Shown here: piece after piece, positions 861-60,613 of the stretch
How positions within the stretch are numbered: the first letter of the stretch is position 1
Layout of the letters: each line of letters opens with the position of its first letter
Source: a virus
Lineage: Duplodnaviria; Caudoviricetes
DNA length: 64,000 nucleotides
Strand: one strand, 5' to 3'
Virus record (IMG/VR): IMGVR_UViG_3300001765_000034
Span: 1 to 64,000 of that record
Made by a program: the position numbers and the translations under genes
The notes under the pieces: model-generated
What the model was told of the DNA's origin: nothing
Databases searched by the model: none
What the model saw: the letters and a program-made list of their open reading frames with translations, nothing else

Positions 861-3800
861 TTAAGTTATTCTCATTACTTCAATGTATGCATCCGATATA
901 GTGGTTGAACTTCCAACATTCCAATATTCTAAAACTATTGTATTTACCCCAGATAACGTGGTAATTTCAATAATACTATTTGTTTCCACATTAGTGATGT
1001 CTTGTGGCTCAATTGATAATTGTGTTTGTGTTCCAATAGGTGACCCGTTTAATGTTATTCTAAACAATGCCGCGTTAGCAATACTTGAATGAGACCATTT
1101 CCATGTTGCAATAATTTTATATGTTCCCGAAGGTAGATTACTTGTAGTTAACGTCGCTTTTGTTTGTGGAGTTGTTGCTGTTGACGTTGAGTTTCCTACG
1201 GATGAAGTGTATTCATAAACTGATCCAAAGATACCCGAAGTTCCACTTGTACCTGAAGAACCAGATGACCCACTTGATCCAGATGACCCACTTGTACCAT
1301 TAATACCCGATGTACCAGAAGACCCAGAACTACCGCTCGAACCTGATGTTCCACTTGTTCCTGAACTACCTGATGTACCTGAAGTTCCACTTGAACCGGA
1401 TGATCCAGAAGAACCAGATGAACCACTGGTGCCAGATGTTCCATTTATTCCACTAGTACCGCTAGAACCAGAACTACCTGATGTGCCCGCAGTACCACTA
1501 CTTCCGCTTGTGCCAGATGTACCTGAAGAACCACTAGTGCCTGATGTTCCATCAATACCGCTAGAACCCGATGAACCACTTGAACCAGAACTTCCTGATG
1601 TTCCCGATGTTCCGCTACTTCCACTAGTTCCTGATGTCCCACTAGAACCCGATGAACCGGATGTTCCATCAATTCCGCTAGTTCCTGAACTACCAGAAGA
1701 CCCACTAGATCCTGAACTACCACTACTTCCGGACGATCCTGACGAACCCGAACTTCCAGATGTACCACTAGTTCCTGATGTCCCGGAAGAACCAGATGAC
1801 CCTGAGCTTCCAGATGTTCCTGATGTACCTGAACTGCCAGAAGACCCACTCGATCCCGATGTACCACTTGTACCTGATGAACCACTAGTTCCATTCAAAC
1901 CATTTATACCTGATGTTCCAGAAGAACCTGAACTACCAGATGTTCCTGATGTTCCATTTATACCTGAAGTACCGCTAGAACCACTTGTTCCAGATGTACC
2001 ATTAATACCGCTTGTACCCGAGCTTCCACTGGTTCCCGATGACCCAGAACTTCCGCTTGAACCTGAACTACCTGAAGTTCCATCAATACCACTTGTTCCT
2101 GAGCTTCCTGAAGAACCCGATGTTCCCGAAGAGCCAGAGCTTCCACTTGAACCAGATGTTCCTGAAGAACCGCTTGAGCCGGATGTTCCGCTACTTCCAG
2201 AAGATCCTGAACTTCCGCTTGAACCTGAAGAACCAGAACTTCCCGATGACCCAGAACTGCCGCTTGAGCCTGAGCTTCCTGAAGTTCCAGATGAACCAGA
2301 TGTTCCTGAAGAACCGGATGTTCCTGAACTACCAGATGTACCCGAACTTCCGCTTGACCCACTAGTTCCTGATGTACCGCTAGAACCCGATGTTCCATCC
2401 AAACCATTTATACCTGATGTTCCGCTTGTGCCAGAACTACCGGATGTACCCGATGATCCACTTGAACCAGATGTTCCCGAACTACCGCTTGAGCCAGAAG
2501 AACCTGATGTCCCTGAAGATCCCGATGTTCCAGTACTTCCAGAGCTTCCACTTGACCCAGAAGAACCAGATGTGCCCGATGATCCACTTGAACCAGATGT
2601 TCCATCTAAACCGTTTATTCCACTCGTACCTGACGAACCACTAGTTCCATCAATTCCTGATGTTCCACTTGTGCCAGAACTACCTGATGTTCCGTCTAAT
2701 CCATTTATTCCCGATGTTCCTGAACTACCTGATGTTCCTGATGAACCACTTGACCCGGATGTACCACTACTTCCCGAACTTCCACTTGAACCAGAGCTTC
2801 CGGAAGTTCCACTAGAACCAGATGACCCTGAAGTGCCAGAAGTACCGTCTAATCCATTTATACCTGATGTACCACTTGAGCCTGATGTACCTGAAGTTCC
2901 ATCCAATCCGTTTATTCCCGATGTGCCTGAGCTACCAGAAGAACCTGAAGTCCCGGAAGTTCCAGATGAACCACTTGTACCGGAGGTTCCATCCAAACCA
3001 TTTATGCCTGATGTACCAGAAGTTCCTGACGAACCCGAAGTTCCAGATGAACCGCTTGTACCATTTATTCCACTTGTTCCTGAACTACCGCTACTTCCAG
3101 ATGTTCCTGAGCTACCTGAAGTCCCGTTAATACCACTAGTTCCCGAAGAACCTGACGTTCCACTAGAACCGCTAGTTCCAGATGTGCCGGATGTTCCTGA
3201 AGAACCTGATGAGCCACTTGAGCCGGAAGTTCCACTACTTCCACTTGTTCCCGAACTTCCAGAAGACCCACTTGAACCACTTGAACCACTACTACCAGAA
3301 GTACCTGACGTACCGTCCAATCCATTTATTCCCGATGTTCCTGAACTTCCTGATGTACCACTAGAACCTGAAGTTCCATCAACACCGCTTGTTCCCGATG
3401 AACCAGAACTACCAGAAGTACCTGAAGAACCCGAACTTCCACTGGTTCCTGATGAACCACTAGAACCTGAGCTACCGCTCGTTCCCGAACTACCTGAAGT
3501 TCCATCAATACCACTCGTTCCACTCGAACCAGATGTTCCGCTAGAACCAGACGATCCTGAACTTCCACTTGACCCGGATGTACCTGAAGAGCCACTTGAG
3601 CCAGAAGTTCCATCTAAACCATTTATACCTGAAGTACCACTAGAACCCGATGTTCCAGAACTACCTGACGAACCACTCGTTCCGTTAATACCTGAGCTTC
3701 CTGATGTTCCAGAACTTCCTGAAGTTCCACTGGTTCCATCCAAACCGTTTATTCCGGATGTACCGCTACTTCCACTTGAACCAGATGTACCTGAACTACC

Positions 3801-6785
3801 ACTAGTTCCGTCCAATCCGTTTATTCCTGATGTACCGCTACTTCCGCTTGAGCCAGATGAACCCGAAGTCCCAGAAGTTCCAGATGTACCACTTGAGCCA
3901 GAAGTTCCATCTATTCCAGATGTACCTGAACTACCACTTGAGCCACTAGTTCCGTCAATACCGCTCGTACCTGAACTACCCGATGTTCCACTTGAGCCAG
4001 AAGTACCTGAAGAACCTGATGTTCCATCTATTCCTGATGTTCCACTCGAGCCACTAGTTCCTGAAGATCCAGAAGTTCCTGATGTACCACTTGAGCCAGA
4101 TGTTCCTGAAGAACCCGTCCCAATGGGATAATATGTTGCATTTCCACTTTCATCAAATCCCGCTAATTGATTAATCGTACCAATGTGAGCTGAGGATGTC
4201 CAAGTTAAATTCGATAAAGTAGCGTGGTTACTTGAAGATATTCCACCAATTGATACCTGTGATGCTTTGCTACCTTTTAGATATGTTACACCGCCAGTTC
4301 GAATAGTTACTTTACCAATATTTCCGTTGGCGGTAGCTGTAAAATATGTTATTCTTGCATACAATACAAACTCTGCTGAACTATCTGATAATGAACCAAG
4401 ATATAAACCATTTACATCTTCAGCTATTGCCGAAGCCAATGATGTATATGCAACCTGCGGTTGTACCATTATCATCCTATATTTTTGAGAATCACTATCG
4501 GATGTTACAGGTACTAATAATTGATAAACGTTATAATATCTATTATTAATCCCCACTGTTAATGTACCCGTTAACGGATTGTTTAATTGAATAAATGTAT
4601 TGGTAGTACCATAAAATGGAGTTGATCCTGTAAGGTCAAAAATTGATGCAGTATAACCAGAAACATACATTCTTGTATATACACCCTGAGTCCAACCCGA
4701 AATTGTTGTCTGAAGATCTTCATCTTTAATAGTCCCAATGTTAAAACCAGGCGTTGTATCATTATCTGTTGCACTATTAAAATTATATGTTCCAGATGTT
4801 AATCCACATCCACTTTTATGATATGTTCCAATCTTAAAGTGGAATTCTTCATGTGATTCAACATCCATTAATTCGTGTGTCTCTCTAATACAAAAACTTG
4901 AAGCAGATGTTGATTGATAATTTACACTAGCCACTTGAATCTGATCAAAACTCCAAACGGTTTGACTCCAAGTAAATTCAACGCCATCTGTTGATGATAG
5001 ATACCAATTTCCTACTGTATTTGTATGACCTGATGATATCCAAGGAGATGTAAGACCAGTATATATAACTCCTCTCCAATAATATGTTAAATCACCCGTG
5101 AGTGTTACTGTTCTATTTGTCCAGTTATAAGATACATCAATATCACTTCCACTTTTAAATCCTGTATATTGTCCTGCATCGGATACTGCTTTTAATGGTA
5201 AAGCATTTAACGATCCGTCAACCCCTGATGTACCACTAGATCCCGATGTTCCAGAAGAACCAGAACTTCCTGAAGTTCCACTGGTGCCATCTAAACCAGA
5301 TGTCCCCGAGCTACCGCTTGTTCCAGAACTACCTGAAGAACCACTACTACCAGATGTTCCACTTGTCCCTGAAGATCCACTAGTTCCGTCTAATCCATTT
5401 ATTCCAGATGTTCCAGAACTACCACTTGTTCCACTTGAGCCTGAGCTTCCTGATGTACCACTAGAACCAGATGTACCTGAACTGCCAGAAGACCCTGAAG
5501 TTCCATTAATACCACTCGTACCTGAACTACCACTTGAACCAGAACTTCCAGAAGTTCCATCCAAACCATTTATTCCTGAAGTTCCGCTACTTCCTGAGCT
5601 TCCGCTTGTTCCATCAATACCAGAAGTACCTGAAGATCCTGAGCTACCGCTCGATCCAGATGTTCCATCGATACCACTTGTTCCAGAAGAACCGCTACTA
5701 CCAGATGTACCCGAAGATCCACTTGACCCAGAAGTTCCAGATGAACCGCTTGTACCATTTATTCCACTTGTTCCTGAACTACCAGAAGAACCTGATGTTC
5801 CATCAATTCCACTAGTTCCACTTGAACCGGATGTTCCACTTGTTCCATCTATTCCAGATGTACCTGAACTACCAGATGTTCCTGATGTTCCATTTATACC
5901 TGAAGTACCACTAGAACCACTTGAGCCAGATGTACCTGAAGTACCACTTGATCCATCCAAACCATTTATACCTGAAGTTCCAGATGAACCGCTTGTACCA
6001 TTTATTCCACTTGTACCTGAAGAACCGCTACTTCCAGATGTTCCCGAACTGCCAGAAGTACCATCCAGACCATTTATACCTGAAGTTCCGCTACTTCCCG
6101 AGCTTCCACTTGTTCCATCAACGCCAGAAGTGCCTGAAGTTCCGCTCGAACCAGAAGTTCCAGATGAACCGCTTGTACCACTACTTCCAGTTGTTCCCGA
6201 ACTACCCGAAGAACCCGATGTTCCATTTATACCGGATGTACCACTAGAACCACTTGTTCCAGATGTACCATCAACACCACTAGTACCAGAAGAACCGCTA
6301 GAACCTGAAGTTCCACTGGTTCCGTCCAAACCATTTATTCCTGATGTACCAGAACTACCGCTTGTGCCTGAAGTACCACTACTACCAGATGTTCCGCTGG
6401 TTCCGTCTAATCCCGATGTTCCACTAGTTCCTGAACTTCCAGATGTTCCGTTTATTCCTGAAGTTCCGCTAGTGCCTGAAGTTCCGCTCGAACCAGAAGT
6501 TCCACTTACTCCAGGCTCACCCGAACTTAATTTTAATACTAAATCATTATCTGTTATTCCACTATAATACCAGTATTCATATAATGTTCCACCCAACCAT
6601 TGTAATGAAATGTTATCATATGTTGCTCCTGTTATGATACCAACAGTTAATCCCACCGATCTCCATGATCCTACACCACCAGGTATATTGTTATTTGCAT
6701 GGGTTACACCAGTCCAGGGGCCGTATCTCCAATCTAAATGTTTTGGAGACTGGTTTTTAATATTATCGCTAAGGTTAATTGCCAT
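861..6785 (-). CDS. Giant Gly-X-X (GSS/GTS) repeat fibre protein, 1974 aa, with internal globular domain and beta-rich C-terminal domain
   Basis: Two long proline-free G-X-X tracts (GTSGSSGTSGINGLD) flank a non-repetitive ~370 aa domain; ~120 aa beta-rich C-terminal cap; layout resembles collagen-like fibres such as BclA. Confidence 0.85.
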   Translation of the reverse strand: MAINLSDNIKNQSPKHLDWRYGPWTGVTHANNNIPGGVGSWRSVGLTVGIITGATYDNISLQWLGGTLYEYWYYSGITDNDLVLKLSSGEPGVSGTSGSSGTSGTSGTSGINGTSGSSGTSGTSGLDGTSGTSGSSGTSGTSGSSGTSGINGLDGTSGTSGSSGSSGTSGVDGTSGTSGSSGTSGINGTSGSSGSSGTTGSSGTSGSSGTSGSSGTSGTSGVDGTSGSSGSSGTSGINGLDGTSGSSGTSGSSGSSGTSGINGTSGSSGTSGINGLDGSSGTSGTSGSSGSSGTSGINGTSGTSGSSGTSGIDGTSGTSGSSGTSGIDGTSGSSGSSGTSGINGTSGSSGTSGSSGSSGTSGSSGSSGTSGIDGTSGSSGSSGSSGTSGIDGTSGSSGSSGTSGINGLDGTSGSSGSSGSSGTSGINGTSGSSGSSGTSGSSGTSGSSGSSGTSGSSGTSGINGLDGTSGSSGTSGTSGSSGSSGSSGTSGSSGTSGLDGTSGTSGSSGSSGTSGSSGTSGVDGSLNALPLKAVSDAGQYTGFKSGSDIDVSYNWTNRTVTLTGDLTYYWRGVIYTGLTSPWISSGHTNTVGNWYLSSTDGVEFTWSQTVWSFDQIQVASVNYQSTSASSFCIRETHELMDVESHEEFHFKIGTYHKSGCGLTSGTYNFNSATDNDTTPGFNIGTIKDEDLQTTISGWTQGVYTRMYVSGYTASIFDLTGSTPFYGTTNTFIQLNNPLTGTLTVGINNRYYNVYQLLVPVTSDSDSQKYRMIMVQPQVAYTSLASAIAEDVNGLYLGSLSDSSAEFVLYARITYFTATANGNIGKVTIRTGGVTYLKGSKASQVSIGGISSSNHATLSNLTWTSSAHIGTINQLAGFDESGNATYYPIGTGSSGTSGSSGTSGTSGSSGTSGSSGTSGIDGTSGSSGTSGSSGTSGSSGTSGIDGTSGSSGSSGTSGIDGTSGSSGTSGTSGTSGSSGSSGSSGTSGINGLDGTSGSSGTSGSSGSSGTSGINGLDGTSGTSGSSGTSGSSGINGTSGSSGSSGTSGSSGTSGINGLDGTSGSSGSSGTSGSSGSSGSSGSSGTSGSSGTSGIDGTSGSSGTSGSSGSSGSSGTSGSSGSSGTSGSSGSSGTSGVDGTSGSSGTSGSSGTSGINGLDGTSGTSGSSGSSGSSGSSGSSGTSGSSGTSGSSGSSGSSGTSGTSGTSGSSGTSGSSGTSGINGTSGSSGTSGSSGSSGTSGINGTSGSSGTSGSSGTSGTSGINGLDGTSGTSGSSGTSGTSGSSGSSGTSGINGLDGTSGTSGSSGTSGINGLDGTSGTSGSSGSSGTSGSSGSSGSSGSSGTSGSSGSSGTSGSSGTSGINGLDGTSGSSGTSGTSGIDGTSGSSGTSGINGLDGTSGSSGSSGTSGSSGSSGSSGSTGTSGSSGTSGSSGSSGSSGTSGSSGSSGTSGSSGTSGTSGINGLDGTSGSSGTSGTSGSSGSSGTSGSSGTSGSSGTSGSSGTSGSSGSSGSSGSSGSSGSSGSSGSSGSSGSSGTSGSSGSSGTSGSSGSSGSSGTSGSSGSSGTSGIDGTSGSSGSSGSSGSSGTSGSSGTSGINGTSGTSGSSGTSGINGTSGTSGSSGSSGTSGINGLNGTSGSSGTSGTSGSSGSSGSSGTSGTSGSSGSSGSSGTSGTSGTSGSSGSSGSSGSSGSSGSSGSSGSSGTSGIDGTSGSSGSSGTSGTSGSSGTSGTSGSSGSSGSSGSSGIDGTSGTSGSSGTSGTSGSSGTAGTSGSSGSSGTSGINGTSGTSGSSGSSGSSGSSGTSGTSGSSGTSGTSGSSGSSGSSGTSGINGTSGSSGSSGSSGSSGTSGTSGIFGSVYEYTSSVGNSTSTATTPQTKATLTTSNLPSGTYKIIATWKWSHSSIANAALFRITLNGSPIGTQTQLSIEPQDITNVETNSIIEITTLSGVNTIVLEYWNVGSSTTISDAYIEVMRIT

Positions 6786-6790
6786 TTATA

Positions 6791-9700
6791 TTAAGTATTT
6801 CTATATTCAAATGTTGATTTAGTTGTGCCGTATACGCTCCAATGCATTTTATATGTTATTCCTGACCAATAACCATCTGGGCTATTAACATTTCCCGTTG
6901 CTACCGAGGTAATAAAAGTTCCGTCATTAGTTCCATTATCAAATGCGTCTACATACCATTTTGTTTTTGTTGTATAACTATTTTGATATGCAACCCAAAT
7001 ATATTCACTTGACGAATTATATGTTATTGTTAATGTTCCAGATGCTGCAGTTAAAACTTTATTTGCAGTTCCTCCTGAAATTGCAGATGCTATTGACTCA
7101 ACAGTTGGCAACGAACTCATTTTTCCCCAGAAATATGGATAAATTCCTGTTATTGTATATGTTGTAGTTCCAAATGTATTACCTGATAATTGAGGTCCTG
7201 TTGTTGTTCTAAGAGCATAAGCACTAGAATCTGTGTTCCCTTTATTATCTAATTTTTGTAATCCTGAGTCATAATTACCATCTCCTTGATATGTTGTAGA
7301 TCCTCCAGGTATAATGTATGATTCATTATATGGTGTTGGACTAATTGAATATGTATGATTAGGATTATTTGGGTCAGTATACCCGAATTGTGCAGCAATG
7401 TCTGTCGCAGATGATTCGGTTAATGTAGTGTCGGTAAATATTGGTGAACTATTTCGTAAAATTCTTAATTGGGTATATAATCCCGCATCATTTTTAACAC
7501 CTGATAATGTAATATTTGGTGAATATGTTCTACCAATTTCATATGTTTGGTTTGAAACTCCACCTAATGTTATTGTTGGGATAGTATATGTAGGTTCTAC
7601 TGTTGGAAATAATAAATCATTCCAAAGTTGAACATTTGTTTTTCCTGTTAATTGAGAAACCGTTGTTCCTGCTGGTATTCCACCAATAGTTGTCGGGGTC
7701 GCTAATGACGGATCTAATGTTGTATTAAATACGGTATATAATGTATCACCAGTAACACCTGAAATTAACCCTAAACCTGTATTATCACTAACACTAAGGT
7801 TAGTTCCAGTTCCAGATGTTCCCGAACTTCCACTAGTTCCGTCAATTCCTGAAGTGCCTGATGTTCCGTTTATACCTGAAGTACCTGACGAACCATTTAT
7901 TCCAGAAGTACCAGATGATCCACTTGTTCCAGAACTTCCTGAAATCCCGCTAGTTCCAGACGAACCACTGGTTCCATCTAAACCATTTATTCCAGACGTT
8001 CCTGAACTTCCACTTGAGCCAGAAGTTCCATCAATACCACTTGTTCCTGATGAACCAGAACTGCCGGATGTTCCAGAAATACCAGATGAACCACTTGAAC
8101 CTGAAGTTCCAGAAGTACCTGAACTACCTGACGTTCCACTAATACCAGAAGATCCTGATGTTCCATCAATACCAGAAGTACCTGAAGATCCACTTGTTCC
8201 AGAACTACCTGATATACCACTAGTTCCTGATGAACCGTTAGTTCCATCAATTCCTGATGTACCACTAGAACCCGAACTTCCCGATGTACCATTTATTCCC
8301 GAAGTTCCACTTGATCCAGATGTACCCGAAGAACCACTAGCCCCTGATGACCCACTCGTTCCAGAACTTCCAGATAAACCTGAAGTTCCCGATGACCCAC
8401 TAGTGCCGTCTAATCCATTTATACCTGATGTTCCTGATGAGCCAGAACTTCCACTAATTCCAGATGTTCCTGAACTTCCTGATGTTCCATCAATACCGCT
8501 AGTACCACTAGTACCACTTAATCCTGATGACCCACTAGTTCCAGATGTTCCGTCCTGACCGCTTGTCCCTGAAGTTCCGTCCTGACCATCAATTCCTGAT
8601 GTACCACTAGATCCTGAACTACCCGATGTACCATTTATTCCTGATGTACCACTAGATCCGGATGTTCCAGAAGTACCGCTTAACCCAGAGGTTCCTGATG
8701 AACCACTTGACCCTGATGTACCGTCCTGTCCATCTATACCCGATGTTCCACTTGAACCAGATGTTCCGTCAACCCCTGATGTACCACTTGAACCAGAACT
8801 TCCAGACGTTCCATTTATTCCACTTGTACCAGATGACCCTGAAGTTCCTGAAGAACCACTAGTTCCATCTAATCCATCAATTCCTGATGTACCAGAACTT
8901 CCACTGCTTCCGCTTGAGCCAGAAGTTCCTGACGATCCACTAGTTCCGTCAATTCCTGATGTTCCAGAAGTTCCATTTATTCCCGATGTTCCGGAAGTTC
9001 CATCAATCCCTGATGTACCTGATGATCCACTACTTCCAGATGATCCACTAGAACCAGAACTACCTGAGCTTCCGCTTGAGCCCGATGTCCCATCTTGACC
9101 ATCAATACCACTTGTTCCAGAAGTTCCGTTAATACCAGAAGTTCCACTCGAACCTGATGTCCCGTCAATTCCAGATGTTCCACTCGAGCCAGAAGTCCCA
9201 TCTAACCCATTTATTCCTGAAGTCCCTGAACTTCCGCTTGAACCTGATGATCCACTCGATCCGCTTGAACCTGATGAACCACTCGATCCGCTTGACCCCG
9301 ATGAACCACTCGAGCCAGAAGTTCCATCTTGCCCACTTGTTCCCGATGTCCCATTTATTCCAGATGTTCCACTTGAACCAGAGCTCCCAGATGTTCCACT
9401 TGAACCAGAGCTCCCAGATGTTCCACTTGAACCAGAACTTCCAGATGTTCCACTTGAACCAGAACTTCCAGATGTTCCACTTGAGCCAGAAGTACCGTTA
9501 ATTCCTGATGTTCCTGATGTTCCACTAGACCCATCTAACCCTTGAGCCCCACCTATGTTAACATCCCAATTAGAATATGTTCCAGAACCGTAAACTGTAT
9601 CAATATTTCCAACCATATCACCCGTTGATGGGTTATATGAATTAACAGTTCCGGTCATATAATTTGAGCCGTCGTATGCAATAATAAAAGTTTGTCCGGG

Positions 9701-10585
9701 TGTATAATTAAGTCCCGTTTCAACAGTAAAATTTTGTGTTCCTCCACTTATCGTTAAAGAATCAGTTGAGGTAGCTTGATATATATCACCTGAAAGTCCT
9801 GATGTTCCAGAACTTCCGCTAGTTCCGTCAATTCCTGATGTGCCAGATGTGCCTGAGCTTCCAGATGAACCTGAAGTTCCGCTTGTGCCAGATGAACCTG
9901 AAGTTCCGCTTGTGCCAGAACTTCCAGATGTGCCGTTGATACCAGATGTCCCTGATGTTCCATCAATACCAGATGTCCCCGATGTTCCTGAAGACCCGCT
10001 TGTTCCAGAACTTCCTGATGTTCCTGAAGATCCACTTGAACCAGAACTTCCTGATGTTCCTGAAGATCCACTTGAACCAGAACTTCCCGATGTACCGTTA
10101 ATTCCAGAAGTTCCCGATGTACCGTCAATTCCAGAAGTTCCCGATGAACCACTGGTACCAGATGACCCTGATGAACCAGATGACCCTGATGAACCAGATG
10201 ACCCAGATGATCCACTGGTTCCCGATGTTCCTGATGTTCCTGATGATCCACTACTTCCAGAAGTTCCCGATGTCCCATTTATTCCAGATGTACCTGAACT
10301 TCCAGACGTACCAGAAGTACCGCTTGATCCTGAACTTCCGCTAGTACCTGAACTTCCGCTAGTACCCGAACTTCCAGATGTACCTGAACTTCCAGATGTA
10401 CCTGAACTTCCAGATGTACCTGAAGTTGCTGTAACTACGAAATCTTTAAAAGCCCCTAATGTAATAGAATACGTTGTAACACCATCGTCATAAACCGTCC
10501 ATCCAGTTAAAGATAAATCTTGACCCGGAACTAAAGGTAATTCTGGTATGTGTTTTCCGTTACATTTATTTTCTCCTATTGCCAT
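6791..10585 (-). CDS. Second Gly-X-X repeat fibre protein, 1264 aa
   Basis: G-X-X tracts interrupted by an ~80 aa beta module (ATSTDSLTISGGTQNFTVETGLNYTPGQ...GSGTYSNWDVNIG) of a type I recall from phage fibre proteins; C-terminal domain with YPYFWG and YIWVAY motifs. Confidence 0.85.
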   Translation of the reverse strand: MAIGENKCNGKHIPELPLVPGQDLSLTGWTVYDDGVTTYSITLGAFKDFVVTATSGTSGSSGTSGSSGTSGSSGTSGSSGTSGSSGSSGTSGTSGSSGTSGINGTSGTSGSSGSSGTSGTSGTSGSSGSSGSSGSSGSSGSSGTSGSSGTSGIDGTSGTSGINGTSGSSGSSGSSGTSGSSGSSGSSGTSGSSGTSGSSGTSGTSGIDGTSGTSGINGTSGSSGTSGTSGSSGTSGTSGSSGSSGTSGTSGIDGTSGSSGTSGLSGDIYQATSTDSLTISGGTQNFTVETGLNYTPGQTFIIAYDGSNYMTGTVNSYNPSTGDMVGNIDTVYGSGTYSNWDVNIGGAQGLDGSSGTSGTSGINGTSGSSGTSGSSGSSGTSGSSGSSGTSGSSGSSGTSGSSGSSGTSGINGTSGTSGQDGTSGSSGSSGSSGSSGSSGSSGSSGSSGSSGSSGTSGINGLDGTSGSSGTSGIDGTSGSSGTSGINGTSGTSGIDGQDGTSGSSGSSGSSGSSGSSGSSGSSGTSGIDGTSGTSGINGTSGTSGIDGTSGSSGTSGSSGSSGSSGTSGIDGLDGTSGSSGTSGSSGTSGINGTSGSSGSSGTSGVDGTSGSSGTSGIDGQDGTSGSSGSSGTSGLSGTSGTSGSSGTSGINGTSGSSGSSGTSGIDGQDGTSGTSGQDGTSGTSGSSGLSGTSGTSGIDGTSGSSGTSGISGSSGSSGTSGINGLDGTSGSSGTSGLSGSSGTSGSSGASGSSGTSGSSGTSGINGTSGSSGSSGTSGIDGTNGSSGTSGISGSSGTSGSSGTSGIDGTSGSSGISGTSGSSGTSGTSGSSGSSGISGTSGSSGSSGTSGIDGTSGSSGSSGTSGINGLDGTSGSSGTSGISGSSGTSGSSGTSGINGSSGTSGINGTSGTSGIDGTSGSSGTSGTGTNLSVSDNTGLGLISGVTGDTLYTVFNTTLDPSLATPTTIGGIPAGTTVSQLTGKTNVQLWNDLLFPTVEPTYTIPTITLGGVSNQTYEIGRTYSPNITLSGVKNDAGLYTQLRILRNSSPIFTDTTLTESSATDIAAQFGYTDPNNPNHTYSISPTPYNESYIIPGGSTTYQGDGNYDSGLQKLDNKGNTDSSAYALRTTTGPQLSGNTFGTTTYTITGIYPYFWGKMSSLPTVESIASAISGGTANKVLTAASGTLTITYNSSSEYIWVAYQNSYTTKTKWYVDAFDNGTNDGTFITSVATGNVNSPDGYWSGITYKMHWSVYGTTKSTFEYRNT

Positions 10586-52884: not shown

Positions 52885-52969
52885 GCTCCTTTAGCTCAGC
52901 GGTCAAGAGCACCTGTTTTACAAGCAGGAGGCGAATAGTATCACGGTGGTTCGAATCCATCAAGGAGTA
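52885..52969 (+). tRNA. trnV: tRNA-Val(TAC) with 16-nt variable region
   Basis: CCTGT-TTTACAA-GCAGG; acceptor GCTCCTT/AAGGAGT. Confidence 0.82.
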
Positions 52970-53088
52970 CATACGGTTAGGACCGTTATAGCTACGGCTA
53001 TTAGGGGTGGGATGTTCGCTGCTGACCACCCCTTTATTTTAATTATCCCACAAATTTTATAGATAGATGAACAAAGAGATTAAATAAT

Positions 53089-53172
53089 CTCGAAGTGGCG
53101 GAATTGGTAGACGCGCTAGCCTAAGGAGCTAGTTCCCGAAAGGGAGTGTGGGTTCGAGTCCCACCTTCGAGA
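53089..53172 (+). tRNA. trnL: tRNA-Leu(AAG)
   Basis: Leu-type D-loop and variable arm; CTAGC-CTAAGGA-GCTAG gives anticodon AAG. Confidence 0.88.
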
Positions 53173-53313
53173 CAAAAGGTTCATGACGGAACTAAGCAGA
53201 TGTTGACCGCGTAACCTGTGCCGAGTGTTCTTGGATGTGAAGGAGTAATACCTTCAGACTCATTATGTGGATCTGCAAAAGCGTAATGGTTGAACTACTA
53301 AAAAGGCACAAAT

Positions 53314-53397
53314 GCAGACGTGGCGGAATTGGTAGACGCGCCAGACTTAGGATCTGGTGCCCGGAAGGGCGTGTGGGTTCGAGTCCCACCTTCTGTA
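53314..53397 (+). tRNA. trnL: tRNA-Leu(TAG)
   Basis: CCAGA-CTTAGGA-TCTGG; class II variable arm. Confidence 0.92.
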
Positions 53398-53452
53398 CGT
53401 TTAGACCGTTTAGAATTTTTATTAGTACTGAAGTAGCGTAGAAAATTCACTT

Positions 53453-53524
53453 GGGGAATTCGTATAGTGGCTATTATAATTGCCTTGCACGCAATGGACG
53501 GGGTTTCGATTACCCCATTCTCCA
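53453..53524 (+). tRNA. trnA: tRNA-Ala(TGC)
   Basis: ATTGC-CTTGCAC-GCAAT; G3:U70 pair. Confidence 0.88.
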
Positions 53525-53552
53525 CTTTGACGGTTCGGAAAGACGAACAAAC

Positions 53553-53627
53553 GCGGGTGTAGCTCAGCTGGCTAGAGCGTCTGATTTGCAATCAGAAGGT
53601 CGTGGGTTCGAAGCCCACTACTCTGCA
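53553..53627 (+). tRNA. trnA: tRNA-Ala(TGC), bulged acceptor stem
   Basis: TCTGA-TTTGCAA-TCAGA; G3:U70; 3' acceptor strand has one extra nt. Confidence 0.78.
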
Positions 53628-53743
53628 CAGGAGGGGTAGATTTATCAGGAGTCCTATTGATACGGATGAATACCCAGCATGGTGTGGTTACTATTTAAAA
53701 TGAAACCGTCAGCAAAACTACATACGATGAAAAAGTAACAAAT

Positions 53744-53823
53744 GGCTCTGTGGATTATGTAAACTGGCACAGCTAACGGGCTTAAACCCCGATCTTTTGT
53801 GGGTTCGAGTCCCACCAGGGCTA
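53744..53823 (+). tRNA. trnL: Atypical tRNA-Leu(TAA): enlarged D region, no variable arm
   Basis: GGCTCTG/CAGGGCT acceptor, CGGG-CTTAAAC-CCCG, canonical T-arm. Confidence 0.65.
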
Positions 53824-53829
53824 CAATTA

Positions 53830-53963
53830 TATTTCGTGGTGGAATTGGTATACACACCTGACTGAATCCCAAAAATGGATTACCTATATGCGGGCTGGAT
53901 CGGGCGTTTAAGTAGTAAGGTATTCTACGAAAGAAATTGCGGGTTCGAGTCCCGTCGAAATGT
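53830..53963 (+). tRNA. Class II (Leu/Ser-type) tRNA body interrupted by ~47 extra nt in the anticodon loop; anticodon undetermined
   Basis: TATTTCG/CGAAATG acceptor, GTGGAATTGGTATACAC D-arm, variable arm and GCGGG-TTCGAGT-CCCGT T-arm. Confidence 0.55.
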
Positions 53964-53971
53964 AATTATTC

Positions 53972-54051
53972 GGCTCTGTGGATTATGTAAACTGGCACAG
54001 CTAACCGGCTCAAACCCGGATCTTTTGTGGGTTCGATTCCCACCAGGGCTA
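53972..54051 (+). tRNA. trnL: Atypical tRNA-Leu(CAA), paralog of 53744-53823
   Basis: Near-identical body; CCGG-CTCAAAC-CCGG with compensatory stem change. Confidence 0.65.
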
Positions 54052-54093
54052 CTATATTTTTGATTTTTTCCATATTTATAATAAACTGAAAGT

Positions 54094-54270
54094 ATGTGGC
54101 AATATAAACGTATTGGATATCAATTTCATTTATTAAGAGACATGGAAGCTCAACTAAATAAAGATGGTGAGGATGGTTGGGAAATCATCTATTATACCGA
54201 AACAAAACCTGTAAAATTATCTGATTATTATGTCTCAGATATACTTTACAAAAAATACGTCAATTGCTGA
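54094..54270 (+). CDS. Small DUF4177-like protein (58 aa)
   Basis: Hand translation MWQYKRIG...LNKDGEDGWEII; stop overlaps the 5' end of tRNA-Trp. Confidence 0.5.
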   Translation: MWQYKRIGYQFHLLRDMEAQLNKDGEDGWEIIYYTETKPVKLSDYYVSDILYKKYVNC

Positions 54271-54339
54271 GTGGTTAAAAGCGTTGGTCTCCAAAACCAA
54301 TCTCGAAAGAGTTCGTGGGTTCGAATCCTACTTGGCGTG
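54257..54339 (+). tRNA. trnW: tRNA-Trp(CCA) with a variable arm
   Basis: TTGGT-CTCCAAA-ACCAA; variable hairpin CTC-GAAA-GAG; G73. Confidence 0.82.
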
Positions 54340-54455
54340 CAAAAATTTCCATCTAGTCTGTATTAACATTAACTATTAGAAATGAGGAGATTACATTAAG
54401 TTAATAATTAACTTAAATAAAAAATCTTTAATTTAATAAGAAAGTTTAACTTTTA

Positions 54456-54487
54456 CTTGGTATTTATAATTTTATTACATATATTTG
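54456..54487 (+). promoter_or_regulatory. Bacteroidota sigma70-type promoter of tRNA array 2
   Basis: CTTG, 20 nt spacer, TATATTTG (54480-87). Confidence 0.7.
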
Positions 54488-54509
54488 TACAGAATTAATA
54501 TTTGAAACA

Positions 54510-54590
54510 ATGAGAACTTTATTACATCAGCGCCCCCAAGGACAACCACCAGTGGTTGAACGGGAGACTTGTGTTCTAAATTTTTCGTAA
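54510..54590 (+). CDS. Leader peptide 2, MRTLLHQRPQGQPPVVERETCVLNFS (putative attenuator peptide)
   Basis: Hand-translated 26-codon ORF between promoter and terminator; codons 4-14 are L/H/Q/R/P except one Gly. Confidence 0.8.
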   Translation: MRTLLHQRPQGQPPVVERETCVLNFS

Positions 54591-54649
54591 TTCGAGAGTT
54601 TTTAGATTAGACAAAAGAAACCCCGTTCAGTAATGAATGGGGTTTTTTT
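54557..54649 (+). promoter_or_regulatory. Attenuator 2: antiterminator/terminator pair
   Basis: TGAACGGG (54557-64) is complementary to CCCGTTCA in the 5' arm of terminator AAACCCCGTTCA-GTAA-TGAATGGGGTTT-TTTT. Confidence 0.8.
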
Positions 54650-54657
54650 ATTTAAAA

Positions 54658-54732
54658 CTGGGTGTATTGCAGATGGTTATACTACCGTGCCCTGGAAGCA
54701 CGGGTCCGCAGGTTCGAATCCTGCCACCCAGA
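54658..54732 (+). tRNA. trnP: tRNA-Pro(TGG)-like with C33 and weak D-stem
   Basis: CTGGGTG/CACCCAG acceptor; CGTGC-CCTGGAA-GCACG. Confidence 0.65.
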
Positions 54733-54736
54733 CGAT

Positions 54737-54748
54737 TGTTCTTTGACA
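54737..54748 (+). promoter_or_regulatory. boxA-like element
   Basis: TGTTCTTTGACA, identical to 51985-51996. Confidence 0.6.
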
Positions 54749-54754
54749 TTTAAT

Positions 54755-54841
54755 GCACCTGTATCCCCCTAGTCTTCGAAACTTTCGAAACTAGAGAGCG
54801 GTAATTGGATGAGAATATGGGTTCGAATCCCTTCAGGTGTA
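54755..54841 (+). tRNA. Rearranged tRNA-Arg(TCG)-like RNA
   Basis: GCACCTG/CAGGTGT acceptor and T-arm present; no D-arm before the anticodon arm; 9-nt duplication TTCGAAACT. Confidence 0.5.
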
Positions 54842-54847
54842 CAATTC

Positions 54848-54919
54848 GCACCCGTAGTTCAATGGATAGAACACTAGACTACGGATCTTGAGATTGAGGT
54901 TCGAGTCCTCCCGGGTGTA
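54848..54919 (+). tRNA. trnR: tRNA-Arg(ACG)
   Basis: Canonical Arg D-loop AATGGATA; loop CTACGGA. Confidence 0.88.
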
Positions 54920-54977
54920 CAATTATCGGTTAAATAACCTATAAATATAATTTATCGGTTGTGGAGACGATAAATTT

Positions 54978-55062
54978 CGGGATGTGGTGTAGTTGGTAGC
55001 ATACGTGTTTTGGGAACATGGGGGAACGCAAGTCATCGCAGGTTCGAGTCCTGCCATCCCGA
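54978..55062 (+). tRNA. trnP: tRNA-Pro(TGG) with 17-nt variable region
   Basis: CGGGATG/CATCCCG acceptor, A73; CGTGT-TTTGGGA-ACATG. Confidence 0.85.
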
Positions 55063-55220
55063 CTAAAGTTAATCGTCCGTCATATGAAGATTTAATAACA
55101 GAAATAAATATTTTTGGATACTCAGCAACTGGCAGAAAATATGGAGTAAGTGACGTGTCAATAAAAAAATGGAAAGAAAAATATGAAAAAGATTTAATAA
55201 ATGGTGTATGTAGCCGGTAA
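55063..55220 (+). pseudogene. Orphan C-terminal HTH fragment resembling that of phage HNH homing endonucleases
   Basis: RPSYEDL...GYSATGRKYGVSDVSIKKWKEKY with no start codon of its own and no nuclease domain. Confidence 0.5.
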
Positions 55221-55289
55221 TTGGTGTCCGACCAGCCTGTGAAGCTGGAATCTGAAAAGACCATGTGGGTTCAAGTCCCATCATTCACC
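55203..55289 (+). tRNA. trnH: tRNA-His(GTG) with a variable arm
   Basis: G-1:C73 pair; CCAGC-CTGTGAA-GCTGG; variable hairpin TCT-GAAA-AGA. Confidence 0.85.
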
Positions 55290-55331
55290 CAAAAGCGTGA
55301 TATTTTGATTTATCACTTTATTACGCGATAT

Positions 55332-55404
55332 TGTCTCGTAGTGTAATTGGTAACATGTCTGGCTCTGGACCAGAAGACTGGGGAATCGTACTCCTCCGAG
55401 ACAA
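55332..55404 (+). tRNA. trnQ: tRNA-Gln(CTG), non-canonical T-loop
   Basis: TGTCTCG/CGAGACA; TCTGG-CTCTGGA-CCAGA; T-loop AATCGTA. Confidence 0.75.
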
Positions 55405-55413
55405 CAACTATAT

Positions 55414-55487
55414 TGCCCTGTGGTGTAATTGGTTAACATACGGCACTTTGGATGCTGTGACTCAAGGTTCGAACCCTTGCGGGGCAA
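55414..55487 (+). tRNA. trnQ: tRNA-Gln(TTG)
   Basis: Canonical cloverleaf; CGGCA-CTTTGGA-TGCTG. Confidence 0.9.
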
Positions 55488-55493
55488 CAATAT

Positions 55494-55579
55494 TCTCCTC
55501 TGGCAGAATGGACAAATGCGCCAGACTTTGACTCTGGTACCCATATTCGGGTTTGTAGGTTCGAGTCCTACGGGGAGGA
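55494..55579 (+). tRNA. trnQ: tRNA-Gln(TTG) with class II body
   Basis: CCAGA-CTTTGAC-TCTGG; variable arm ACCC-ATATTC-GGGT; Ser/Tyr-like D-loop. Confidence 0.78.
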
Positions 55580-55583
55580 CAAA

Positions 55584-59061: not shown

Positions 59062-59094
59062 AAAAAAGGTCGGAAATATCCGACCTTTCTTTTT
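59062..59094. terminator. Bidirectional intrinsic terminator
   Basis: AAAAAAGGTCGGA-AATA-TCCGACCTTT between convergent genes. Confidence 0.75.
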
Positions 59095-59824
59095 ATTCCT
59101 CAAATGTGGGTTTCATCCACAATTTAGTCTTAGTAAAAATATAATCCCTTAAATACGGGAAAACATTTAATCTGTTCCAAGTCTCCAAGGTGTCATGTTT
59201 AAAACACTTATATAATTCTTCTCTTATACGTTCACCTGAGACCACACCCATTTTTTTCTCATAATCATAGTGATAAATTACATACCACATTTCTTTCGGA
59301 ATGGTAAATCCTTTTGTTATGGAAAACCTAATAGCTCTTAAAATCCTCAACGGATCATCATCAAAGGTAATTGTGCAATCCAATGGCGTTCTTAAAATAC
59401 CATTTTTTAAATCGTTTAACCCATTGAAGAAATCAACAATTTCACCGTCGTCACCTCTTGCTAAAGCGTTAAGGGTAAAGTCACGTCTTTCCAGATCGTC
59501 ATATAACGTCCCTGGCTTAACTATTGGCGTTCGAGTGTTCGGTATATACCCAATTTCTTTTCGAGCCATTACAAAGTCTGCAACACCGACGTATTTGTGT
59601 CCTTCAGGAAATCTTGCCCTGATGGTATAACAATCAGGTGTAATTAAGAAGATTTCAAAATTTTGTTCTTTAAGGTATTTGATTAATACCCCGAACATTT
59701 CTGAAGCTTCAGAATAATTACGTAACAATAACTCGTTTGGAACGGCAACATAATCAACATCCTTAGATTTTAATCCGAGAATTTCATCCCTAATCTTCCC
59801 TCCTACTTCATAAAATGTAAACAT
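59093..59824 (-). CDS. cca: tRNA nucleotidyltransferase (CCA-adding enzyme, class II head domain)
   Basis: YEVGGKIRDEILG...KDVDY, DLERRDFTLNALA, DDPLRILRAIRF and SGERIREEL motifs; none of the tRNAs here encode a full CCA. Confidence 0.9.
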   Translation of the reverse strand: MFTFYEVGGKIRDEILGLKSKDVDYVAVPNELLLRNYSEASEMFGVLIKYLKEQNFEIFLITPDCYTIRARFPEGHKYVGVADFVMARKEIGYIPNTRTPIVKPGTLYDDLERRDFTLNALARGDDGEIVDFFNGLNDLKNGILRTPLDCTITFDDDPLRILRAIRFSITKGFTIPKEMWYVIYHYDYEKKMGVVSGERIREELYKCFKHDTLETWNRLNVFPYLRDYIFTKTKLWMKPTFEE

Positions 59825-59896: not shown

Positions 59897-60613
59897 ATGA
59901 AAATAGTTTTTATATCAGACACACACGGATTACATAATTCGATGTTACATCCATTGCCAGAAGGGGATGTCCTCATTCACGCAGGCGACTTAACAAATAT
60001 TGGAAGTAGACCAAATTTAGAACAATTCATTCATTGGTTTATGAATATCAAAGGGTTTGACTCAAAAATTTTTATTGCAGGAAACCACGATTGGTGTTTT
60101 GAAAGAAAACCCGATTGGTTAAGTCAATACATCAATGATGAAAATTTATCACAATCAGATTGTGTATATCTTGAAGATTCTTCATTCACAATTGAGAGTC
60201 CTGAATTTTCACGGCCAATAAAATTTTATGGATCTCCGTGGCAACCAGATTTTATGAATTGGGCATTTAATGTTCCAAGAAGCGAATTGCACACATATTG
60301 GGAAAAAATTCCTGAAGATACCGATGTTTTAATTACTCACGGTCCTCCAGAAGGTATTCTTGATATAAATATGGAAGGTGAACCCTGTGGATGTTCATCT
60401 CTTACATATCACGCGGAAAGAGTTAAACCGTTAATTCACGTCTTCGGGCACATACACGAGCAACACGGATATAAAATACATAACGGAACCACATATATCA
60501 ACGCAACAACGTGTACCCGAAGGTATATACCATCAAATAAACCAATTGTAGCCTCGTTAAAAGAACTCGACGGGGATTTTATTGTAAACATACAAGACCC
60601 ATGGAATTATTAA
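59897..60613 (+). CDS. Calcineurin-like metallophosphoesterase
   Basis: ISDTHG, IHAGDLT, IAGNHD, LITHGPP and FGHIHE motifs. Confidence 0.9.
   Translation: MKIVFISDTHGLHNSMLHPLPEGDVLIHAGDLTNIGSRPNLEQFIHWFMNIKGFDSKIFIAGNHDWCFERKPDWLSQYINDENLSQSDCVYLEDSSFTIESPEFSRPIKFYGSPWQPDFMNWAFNVPRSELHTYWEKIPEDTDVLITHGPPEGILDINMEGEPCGCSSLTYHAERVKPLIHVFGHIHEQHGYKIHNGTTYINATTCTRRYIPSNKPIVASLKELDGDFIVNIQDPWNY

Follow-up and report, generated by a model that had tools for sequence, protein, structure and literature searches.

Five tRNA genes with the anticodons of Val, Trp, Pro, His and Gln carry long variable regions in a window of 64,000 nucleotides (the whole stretch of DNA that was analysed), the carrier of which is a giant T4-like phage. 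In textbooks, long variable arms of bacterial tRNAs are confined to Leu, Ser, Tyr and Sec. The five are probably working elongator tRNAs with a class-II-like frame in which the identity of the anticodon type is kept and, judging from their sequences, they would most likely be charged with the normal amino acid by host enzymes.

Long-armed tRNA genes and their folds

ARAGORN and Rfam RF00005 (gathering score, 29 bits) agreed on the five genes, at the positions of the original prediction (Table 1). All five scored 38.7-61.6 bits against RF00005 across the full model (1-71). The genes are 84-87 nt long, with variable regions of 13-17 nt in every ARAGORN structure, and in the RF00005 covariance-model alignments 12-13 extra nt were placed as a variable-region insertion with high posterior probability; the predicted lengths of roughly 10-17 nt were thus borne out by two callers. 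The features needed for translation are retained, namely the 7/5 acceptor and T stems, the T loop and an anticodon loop of 7 nt that includes U33. Each gene has a cognate sense anticodon, and the arm loops (GAAA, GCAA, GAAUA or AUAUUC) hold no copy of an anticodon. The five genes sit in the same arrays as ordinary phage tRNAs and share their 3′ context; all 17 tRNA genes called by ARAGORN in the window, long and short, end in N73-C without an encoded CCA. The long and the normal-length Gln(UUG) genes are dissimilar in sequence, which makes them a pair of long standing and not the product of a recent duplication.

Table 1. Coordinates of the long-armed tRNA genes and associated features in the window
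Feature	Position	Strand	Length	RF00005 score (bits)	Variable region or remark
tRNA-Val(UAC)	52885..52970	+	86 nt	61.6	variable region 52929-52944 (16 nt)
tRNA-Trp(CCA)	54257..54340	+	84 nt	55.0	variable arm 54302-54314 (13 nt)
tRNA-Pro(UGG)	54978..55063	+	86 nt	55.2	variable region 55021-55037 (17 nt)
tRNA-His(GUG)	55203..55290	+	87 nt (55204-55290) plus encoded G-1 at 55203	38.7	variable arm 55249-55264 (16 nt)
tRNA-Gln(UUG)	55494..55580	+	87 nt	48.2	variable arm 55539-55554 (16 nt)
normal-length tRNA-Pro(UGG)	54658..54733	+		39.7	paralogue of long Pro
normal-length tRNA-Gln(UUG)	55414..55488	+			5 nt upstream of long Gln
phage tRNA nucleotidyltransferase	59093..59824	-	243 aa		CCA-adding type head domain

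The minimum free energy (MFE) structure computed by RNAfold was the five-arm cloverleaf for Trp, His and Gln. The arm of Trp is CUC-GAAA-GAG followed by three unpaired bases, that of His is UCU-GAAA-AGA, and that of Gln has a 4-bp stem, a 6-nt loop and two unpaired bases. The Val variable region has the conserved sequence AGGCGAAUAGUAU, with a 2-bp stem and a GAAUA loop (GNRNA-type). For Pro, the MFE fold was not a cloverleaf and the best hairpin was the weak AC-GCAA-GU; the body of this tRNA is 94% identical to that of L009:21669-21754, whose loop is GAAA. Class II architecture (a variable region of at least 10 nt with a stem-loop) was thus found with clear hairpins in Trp, His and Gln, with 2 bp in Val and weakly in Pro, so that the earlier count of four hairpins is roughly right.

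A 3-bp D stem with an 11-nt loop, like that of the window's own Leu tRNAs, was found in Trp and Gln, which agrees with the Ser/Tyr-like D-loops that had been claimed for these two. The D arm of His has a shifted 3-bp stem and a longer connector, and those of Val and Pro have an ordinary 4-bp stem with loops of 8-9 nt. Of the five genes His is the weakest, at 38.7 bits, with one U·U mismatch in its acceptor stem.

Conservation, spread and constraint on the arm

The long-armed tRNAs are not chance products. Of 121 Bacteroidota genomes, 92 have a Trp tRNA that fits the same flanks, with normal spacing in all but the seed genome, and the DNA of the long His and Trp genes recurs letter-identical in metagenome contigs from two other studies. 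No RNA run containing the stretch was found. Among six Val orthologues, compensatory change was seen in 18 of the 23 consensus pairs, and the variable-region sequence was kept while the stems diverged. Six Gln sequences gave 24 consensus pairs with compensatory change in 19, the extra stem included. The extra stem of 68 unique long Trp tRNAs was 89% paired, versus 34-42% for slid controls, and each of its pairs occurs in all four Watson-Crick types across relatives. No orthologue of the long His was found in the closest relatives.

The long-armed design is a trait of the lineage. Among 277 tRNAs from 87 related records, long forms were found for Asp, Cys, Gln, Glu, His, Lys, Met, Phe, Pro, Thr, Trp and Val, and the complete relative G001 adds long Asn and Ile, giving 14 normally short-armed types in all. 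Of 55 long forms of the clade, 26 are accompanied at the same locus by a copy of normal length that shares their anticodon. Long Trp tRNAs number at least 110 in viral contigs and 69 in 185,579 prokaryote species genomes, 37 of the latter lying inside dense tRNA arrays; at phage loci, 91 of 96 have no short Trp partner within the fetched stretch. The same arrays also contain Leu tRNAs without a long arm, the reverse oddity (55 unique), and several degenerate tRNA-like pieces. In the literature, no paper describing such long-armed phage tRNAs was found.

It is rather unlikely that the extra arm is tolerated as a nearly neutral feature, doing little harm under a loose constraint on phage tRNAs and being kept by descent. 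Long forms are gained and lost between close relatives, as would be expected of such an arm, and the reverse oddity in Leu together with the degenerate pieces suggests a loose tRNA architecture. The pairing and co-variation of the stem, and the conservation of the Val variable region despite the divergence of its stems, argue against neutrality. The D arms are also shifted towards class II, with a D stem of 3 bp or less in 55% of 184 unique long-armed tRNAs whose anticodon is of class I versus 26% of short forms. Finally, the long Trp is usually the sole Trp tRNA of a phage locus, and the design is over-represented in viral DNA.

Amino acid identity and possible function

The same 184 long-armed tRNAs were compared with normal-length tRNAs of the same anticodon, and the discriminator base and the 1:72 pair of the long forms agreed with those of the normal-length tRNAs type by type. 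The long forms had A73 in Val (7/7), A73 with C1:G72 in Pro (4/4), C73 with G-1 in His (9/9), U1:A72 in Gln (6/7), G73 in Trp (85/96) and U73 in Cys (10/10). In the window, Val has A73, Trp has A1:U72 and G73, Pro has C1:G72 and A73, and His has G-1:C73; Gln has U1·G72 and A73, and its U at position 1 and its A73 are as in the window's normal Gln tRNAs. Together with the anticodons, these acceptor-end marks appear to fit the cognate identity sets of ValRS, TrpRS, ProRS, HisRS and GlnRS.

Chimeras charged by SerRS, LeuRS or TyrRS, which would serve as a mistranslation or recoding device like nev-tRNAs or some allo-tRNAs, are improbable. SerRS relies mainly on a long arm, and the long Trp shares G73 with Ser tRNAs. 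In the same data, however, Ser tRNAs have G1:C72 (91%), G2:C71 (96%) and A3:U70 (85%), and arms of 5-6 bp with one unpaired 3′ base, whereas this acceptor signature is absent from the long forms, and the five long arms have 2-4 bp and 2-4 unpaired 3′ bases in a Tyr/Leu-like geometry. A tRNA-Ser identity was rejected on the different acceptor stems and the short arms; G73 stands in Trp alone and is also a Trp identity base, and A73 in Val, Pro and Gln and C73 in His differ from the G73 of Ser tRNAs. For seryl-tRNA synthetase, the extra arm seems too short and its setting wrong.

As for LeuRS, the His-long body is nearest to a Leu(AAG) tRNA (0.76), and the enzyme ignores the anticodon: Leu identity lies in A73 and in core D-loop/T-loop elements (A14, A15:U48 and the placing of G18G19), the anticodon and the arm being dispensable (PMC9976931). 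Leucylation is abolished by C73 in E. coli (PMC9976931), and His (C73) and Trp (G73) were excluded as LeuRS substrates. In Val and Pro, A73 is combined with the usual D arm of class I tRNAs. The long Gln has A73 with a Leu-like D loop and arm geometry, yet a Gln-type U at position 1, and some leucylation of it by LeuRS may be possible on this sequence pattern. Keeping U1:A72 in Gln and G-1:C73 in His would be pointless in mischarged tRNAs, and mistranslation at up to 14 amino acids would ruin the phage proteome.

The four synthetase families PF00587, PF00133, PF00579 and PF00749, which cover the enzymes for Val, Trp, Pro, His and Gln as well as Ser, Leu and Tyr, had no match in G000-G004 (four complete or near-complete relatives). 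Since the identity marks follow the anticodon, the arms are Tyr/Leu-like and none of these four families matched in the relatives searched, cognate charging by the host is probable, against mischarged chimeras. The original prediction had offered remodelled tRNAs that evade defences or chimeras charged with a wrong amino acid; conservation and co-variation support remodelled, functional tRNAs, and the chimera is disfavoured by the cognate N73 and 1:72 and by the non-Ser arms.

Non-translational roles are improbable; in these the long forms would be sponges for defence nucleases or toxins, or mimics of uncharged tRNA feeding leader-peptide switches before the arrays. Long forms often adjoin a normal copy of the same anticodon, which would fit a division of labour, and certain irregular tRNAs are charged yet unused in translation (PMC5389517), but the complete set of translation features and the cognate identity marks are retained here, and most phage loci have no Trp tRNA besides the long one. 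Decaying pseudogenes are very improbable: His-long, with its low score, its mismatch and its lack of close orthologues, and the other degenerate pieces in the array would fit decay, but four of the five score 48-62 bits and orthologues preserve all stems through compensatory change.

As working cognate tRNAs, the five would mature as other phage tRNAs do, with the CCA completed by a host enzyme or by the phage nucleotidyltransferase. They would then be charged by the host cognate synthetases through the anticodon, the discriminator base and the first pair, and, at the ribosome, would decode GUA, UGG, CCN, CAY and CAA. Several class II synthetases, those for Pro, His, Asp and Lys, come to the tRNA from its variable-region side, where an arm might hinder charging. 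The arm is a short Tyr/Leu-type hairpin of 2-4 bp with mostly GNRA-type loops. Our leading guess is that it reshapes the tRNA core, so that shape-reading nucleases or tRNA-modifying toxins aimed at class I tRNAs would fit poorly, and that the result may be a second tRNA pool, harder to hit, beside the ordinary copies of the phage.

Escape from tRNA-cutting defences is a plausible hypothesis for the role of the remodelling. That the arm is an immunity device is doubtful but conceivable, either as a class-II-like parallel pool on which the tRNA weapons of phage-host or phage-phage conflict could not dock, or as a 'self' mark by which a phage nuclease would destroy host class I tRNAs and spare its own. 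It counts against evasion that a long arm is itself a handle for some toxins, as with MenT3, which reportedly acts on tRNA-Ser, and as with Septu, which acts on tRNA-Tyr (PMC13096335). Countering of tRNA-cutting defences by phage tRNAs is documented (PMC10264068, PMC11555353, PMC11464382), and some tRNA-targeting defences cut the variable loop (PMC13096335, PMC13273310). The known evasion acts through changes in the anticodon loop (PMC10264068), which also counts against arm-based evasion.

The textbook rule on long arms, on which tRNA identity models and gene callers are based, is systematically broken here, with long-armed forms for 14 amino acids in one phage lineage that keep the normal acceptor and anticodon marks. 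Should the predicted charging hold, a class-II core would be tolerated by many synthetases from both classes, which would bear on the evolution of tRNA identity and give tRNA engineering natural scaffolds. Phage tRNAs would then be under-counted by pipelines in which such genes are marked 'pseudo' or 'other' (CcrColossus record), and the carriage of tRNAs by phages would gain a structural angle, that of shape change against tRNA-targeting immunity. Cultured systems exist in Caulobacter with CcrColossus and in a Limosilactobacillus reuteri plasmid.

Comparison with known tRNAs

The five share with ordinary class I Val, Trp, Pro, His and Gln tRNAs the anticodon, the discriminator, the first pair, the G-1:C73 of His, the 7/5 stems and the T loop, and the bodies of long Val and Pro, with their ordinary 4-bp D stem, are closest to short Val and Pro tRNAs. 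They differ in having a variable region of 13-17 nt, usually with a hairpin, instead of 4-5 nt, and in the class II-type D arm (3-bp stem, large loop) of Trp, Gln and His. The five-arm fold is shared with bacterial class II tRNAs (Leu, Tyr, Ser); the Trp arm is of the Tyr type (3 bp, 3 unpaired 3′ bases) and the Gln arm of the Leu type (4 bp, 2 unpaired), as in the same phages, whereas the anticodons and acceptor marks are those of other amino acids and the arms are shorter than those of Ser and set differently.

The tRNA-Trp of the cultured Caulobacter phage CcrColossus (JX100810; 86 nt) has the same build as the window Trp, with A1:U72, G73, a 3-bp D stem and the arm GGC-GCAA-GCC followed by three unpaired bases. 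Its array also contains a long tRNA-Lys(CUU), annotated at 88 nt and called at 90 nt by ARAGORN. In the record the two genes are plainly named tRNA-Trp and tRNA-Lys, and long arms go unmentioned in the genome paper (PMC3556154). CcrColossus differs in that it is a siphophage infecting an alphaproteobacterium, its GC content is 62% and CCA is encoded.

Allo-tRNAs and (8/4) tRNA-Ser/tRNA-His have been described from bacteria and from phages of alpha-proteobacteria (Mukai et al. 2017, PMC5389517). Like the present tRNAs, they are irregular, partly phage-borne and found in tRNA clusters, with long arms and non-Ser anticodons (PMC5389517). Allo-tRNAs, however, have 8/4 or 9/3 stems and D arms of the Sec kind, and their identity is mostly Ser (G73/U73), whereas the five here have 7/5 stems and cognate marks. 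Membership in the allo-tRNAs was rejected, both callers giving the 7/5 split in all five.

Nematode nev-tRNAs and the eukaryotic noncanonical V-arm tRNAs have the body of a Leu or Ser tRNA and carry Leu, a mismatch. Both join class II architecture to a class I anticodon, as do the five here (nev-tRNAs, PMC3333845; V-arm tRNAs, Hamashima et al. 2016, via PMC5389517). Both are eukaryotic, whereas here the carriers are phages and the acceptor identity follows the anticodon.

Architecture and surroundings of the long-armed tRNAs

The window spans the initial 64 kb of a viral contig of 84 kb from IMG/VR (completeness estimate, 27%). Genes for a major capsid protein of T4 type, a portal and a large terminase identify it as a fragment of a giant T4-like phage genome. 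Nearly all of two giant ORFs consists of collagen triple-helix repeats, and these ORFs are probably fibres. A tRNA gene island is located at 52.0-55.7 kb on the plus strand, where 17 genes were called by ARAGORN and 18 by Rfam at the gathering score. The tRNA island had no megablast match among records of cultured phages, and tblastn with a ClpB-like protein returned distant huge-phage records only, by which a host is not indicated. A look-up for RNA runs containing this DNA gave none.

The tRNAs for Val-UAC, Trp-CCA, Pro-UGG, His-GUG and Gln-UUG were 84-87 nt in length and scored 38.7-61.6 bits (Rfam, threshold 29), and their added bases were assigned with high confidence to the variable region by covariance-model alignments. 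The long variable regions reported for these class I tRNAs in the original prediction were confirmed with ARAGORN and Rfam at 13-17 nt; the long arms are real and far beyond chance. A hairpin had been claimed for four of them, which was slightly generous: the best unaided fold by RNAfold was a five-arm cloverleaf for Trp, His and Gln (3/5), but the extra stem of Val was merely 2 bp and the best fold of Pro differed from the five-arm cloverleaf. The class II-like D loops claimed for Trp and Gln were recovered as a 3-bp D stem with an 11-nt D loop, the same as in the window's own Leu tRNAs; the D stem of His was 3 bp and shifted, and the D arms of Val and Pro were ordinary.

Metagenome contigs were mapped to the window, and the DNA of the long His and Trp tRNAs was found unaltered in samples of other studies; this mapping was noisy because of cross-mapping tRNAs of other organisms and was of use only for showing this recurrence. 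In contigs of two metagenomes, both sides of the extra stem of Trp were shorter by one base (window positions 54303 and 54310), a compensatory deletion by which the 3-bp stem becomes the 2-bp CC-GAAA-GG, a form known from other phages.

CCA was encoded in none of the 17 ARAGORN-called tRNA genes (0/17), and both long and short forms ended with N73-C followed by a non-C base. A phage tRNA nucleotidyltransferase is encoded 3.4 kb downstream of the island, adjoined by a calcineurin-like metallophosphoesterase, and the two are possibly a tRNA end-repair pair. Homologues of the nucleotidyltransferase were present in 3/3 complete or near-complete relatives with long tRNAs and absent from one without them, a hint, from four genomes only, that this gene tracks the long tRNAs. 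The RNA-ligase family search gave a single match over the curated cut-off, in the complete 364.7-kb relative, which is too little as a basis for a tRNA repair pathway.

Other unusual tRNA genes were recorded in the window and its relatives (see the table). In the 134-nt match, the acceptor stem and T arm are good, the D arm resembles those of Leu and long Gln, and about 60 bases are added mid-gene; the match could be an intron-bearing tRNA, a giant-armed tRNA or a wreck. The tRNA-Leu(AAG) carries A34, which is rare in bacteria, and good reading of CUC and CUU would need its deamination to inosine. The reverse oddity was also observed, namely Leu-anticodon tRNAs of 74-77 nt with a variable region of 4-6 nt (55 unique in the data), all with A73 and most with an ordinary Leu D arm (3-bp stem, 11-nt loop); in phage arrays, the long arm seems to be both acquired and shed. 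Relatives also have a phage-encoded tmRNA directly downstream of the tRNA arrays, the tag peptide of which ends in ELAMAA or ELAIAA.

Positions of tRNA genes and other features in the window and in fetched records (L-numbers; L087 is a piece of the complete 364.7-kb relative, and L261 is LN906635.1)
Feature	Record	Position	Strand	Description
Collagen-repeat ORF	window	861-6785	-	1974 aa
Collagen-repeat ORF	window	6791-10585	-	1264 aa
tRNA-Val, long	window	52885-52970	+	variable region 16 nt
tRNA-Leu(AAG)	window	53089-53173	+	
tRNA-like unit	window	53744-53825	+	one of two near-identical 80-nt units; T arm perfect; accepted by neither caller
tRNA-model match	window	53830-53963	+	134 nt; 29.5 bits, relaxed filters
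tRNA-like unit	window	53973-54053	+	second of the two units; likewise
tRNA-Trp, long	window	54257-54340	+	variable region 13 nt; CUC-GAAA-GAG
tRNA-like piece	window	54755-54841	+	87 nt; 25.5 bits, under threshold
tRNA-Pro, long	window	54978-55063	+	variable region 17 nt
tRNA-His, long	window	55203-55290	+	variable region 16 nt; UCU-GAAA-AGA
tRNA-Gln, long	window	55494-55580	+	variable region 16 nt; 4-bp stem
tRNA nucleotidyltransferase	window	59093-59824	-	phrog_24229; PF01743 head domain only; 243 aa
Metallophosphoesterase	window	59897-60613	+	calcineurin-like
Short-armed tRNA-Leu	L001	9110-9184		
Short-armed tRNA-Leu	L005	9162-9237, 9592-9666		
Short-armed tRNA-Leu	L016	15715-15790		
Short-armed tRNA-Leu	L031	18053-18126		
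Short-armed tRNA-Leu	L089	12143-12342		
tmRNA	L002	11032-11400		
tmRNA	L003	4031-4390		
tmRNA	L004	11033-11392		
tmRNA	L039	15712-16120		
tRNA with CUA anticodon	L087	12037-12111		75 nt; second tRNA region; candidate amber suppressor
tRNA-Trp, long	L261	7701-7785		85 nt; five-tRNA cluster

Spread and conservation of the long arm

Two neighbouring proteins served to fetch 86 related viral loci as well as sections of four relatives whose genomes are complete or almost so (288-365 kb). In the 87 records (86 loci and the window), 277 tRNAs were called by ARAGORN, and long forms (variable region of 10 nt or more) were found for Asp, Cys, Gln, Glu, His, Lys, Met, Phe, Pro, Thr, Trp and Val; Asn and Ile were supplied by the complete 364.7-kb relative, giving 14 of the 17 class I amino acids in the lineage, and no long form for Ala, Arg or Gly was found in these records and genome parts. 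A normal-length tRNA of the same anticodon was present in the same locus for 26/55 long forms, at a distance of 300 nt or less for 19, and within the window for Pro and Gln. Only ordinary tRNAs were called in one relative of 288 kb, so the long-arm trait has been gained and lost. Compensatory change was detected in 18/23 consensus pairs of the long Val tRNA and in 19/24 of the long Gln tRNA, including the Gln extra stem, and every stem was kept in the orthologues; the Val variable region was near-invariant in sequence while the acceptor and anticodon stems diverged.

A search pattern for Trp-CCA tRNAs only, with a long spacer from the anticodon arm to the T arm, matched at least 118 viral contigs, in which at least about 110 long Trp tRNAs were confirmed by ARAGORN. 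The same pattern gave 111 matches in 185,579 prokaryote species (one genome each, 596 Gb), 69 of them long Trp tRNAs, and 37 of these 69 were situated in dense tRNA arrays like those borne by phages or other mobile elements. The pattern was calibrated by leaving the spacer free between unchanged flanks; this matched 92/121 Bacteroidota genomes, with normal spacing in all but the seed genome. In the Trp-pattern loci, long forms accounted for 42/550 non-Trp class I tRNAs among the matches listed and included Arg, Asn, Cys, His, Ile, Lys, Met, Pro, Thr and others.

A covariance model was built from 11 long Trp tRNAs, and 68 unique Trp sequences were aligned to it. At the three extra-stem pairs in the model, standard pairing was present in 89% of cells versus 34-42% with the partner slid by 1-2 columns, an effect size far above the bias of such an alignment towards the structure of its model. 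Every extra-stem pair showed all four Watson-Crick types, and the extra loop was GAAA in 27/68, with further GNRA loops present. Misaligned arms in a MAFFT alignment of 36 long Trp tRNAs hid the D and extra stems from RNAalifold, a problem fixed by the covariance-model alignment. Comparison of body sequences gave no clear source for Trp or Gln, and His was nearest to Leu, which is suggestive only; single-linkage clustering of Trp bodies placed nearly all sequences in one group because the anticodon and T arms were fixed by the search pattern.

Long-armed tRNAs were also found in cultured material. The cultured Caulobacter phage CcrColossus has a tRNA-Trp of 86 nt with the same build as that of the window and a long tRNA-Lys (88 nt annotated, 90 nt by ARAGORN); neither gene carries a remark in the annotation, and both go undiscussed in the genome paper (PMC3556154). 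Long-armed tRNAs are thus directly testable in a cultured phage. A second culturable handle is the long-armed tRNA-Trp on the 138-kb plasmid p53608_1 of Limosilactobacillus reuteri ATCC 53608, the chromosome of which has a normal Trp tRNA.

Amino acid identity and possible role of the arm

Amino acid identity was judged from identity-element tables, in which long and short tRNAs of the same anticodon in the same data were compared. The discriminator base and first acceptor pair of the long forms agreed with those of the short forms in every anticodon type compared: Val, A73 (7/7); Trp, G73 (85/96) and A1:U72 (50/96; short, 9/11); Pro, A73 and C1:G72 (4/4); His, C73 (9/9) and G at -1 (9/9); Gln, U1:A72 (6/7); Cys, U73 (10/10); Asn, G73 (7/7); Lys, A73 (12/13); and Glu, A73 (7/7) and G1.U72 (6/7). 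Among the window's tRNAs, His alone has a G immediately upstream. In these phages, Ser tRNAs carry G1:C72 (91%), G2:C71 (96%) and A3:U70 (85%), marks that are not shared by the long Trp tRNAs.

SerRS recognises the length and orientation of the arm. Ser arms were mostly of 5-6 bp with one unpaired base ahead of the T stem, Leu arms of 3-5 bp with two and Tyr arms of 3 bp with three, and those of the long Trp and other long class I tRNAs were mostly of 3-4 bp with three or four; within the window, the geometry was Tyr-like for Trp and Leu-like for Gln. Arm geometry and identity tables, both read from sequence, argue against Ser-type mischarging. LeuRS requires A73 and core elements, the arm being dispensable, and leucylation is abolished by C73 (PMC9976931); the long Gln tRNA may be partially leucylated, the sole such case among the five. 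Neither the window's record nor any of the four relatives with complete or near-complete genomes gave a match to the synthetase families Ser/Thr/Pro/His/Gly, Ile/Leu/Val/Met, Trp/Tyr and Glu/Gln, so that charging would fall to host enzymes. The five tRNAs are probably functional and charged with their normal amino acid. The original prediction, which offered remodelled tRNAs or chimeras charged with an amino acid mismatching the anticodon, was half right: the compensatory change bears out remodelling, but the identity marks follow the anticodon and charging is very probably cognate.

Recent papers describe many defences that act on tRNAs by cleavage or modification, and phage tRNAs with a countering role (PMC10264068, PMC11555353, PMC11464382, PMC13056530, PMC12445682), and the variable loop is the cut site for some of the defences (PMC13096335, PMC13273310); it is hence a sensible guess that an altered core shape would spoil the docking of tRNA-targeting enzymes. 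The normal and long copies of one anticodon, often paired, would fit a 'second pool'. Against a protective role, published evasion acts via anticodon-loop changes (PMC10264068), and some toxins use the long arm itself as a handle (PMC13096335). Protection by the extra arm against such defences is accordingly a tentative proposal of rather low probability, and a nearly neutral origin of the arm is a somewhat less likely alternative. The arm as a decoy copy of the anticodon hairpin, as in suppressor tRNAs, was rejected on the GNRA type of the arm loops.

Comparison with known tRNAs

Nematode nev-tRNAs, which reportedly are Leu bodies charged with Leu, are unlike the window's five. Allo-tRNAs were likewise rejected as an assignment, since their stems are 8/4 or 9/3 and their identity is mostly that of Ser (PMC5389517), from which the five differ. 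A full-text literature search, covering part of the journals, gave no description of long variable arms in tRNAs of phages or other viruses; the variable region goes unmentioned in an eLife paper on evasion by phage tRNAs, and a paper on tRNA-dependent DNA modification had no bearing on the arms. The window's array contributes the widest set of long-armed forms, Val, Pro and Gln among them, and long-armed forms affecting 14 amino acids in one phage lineage are added here.
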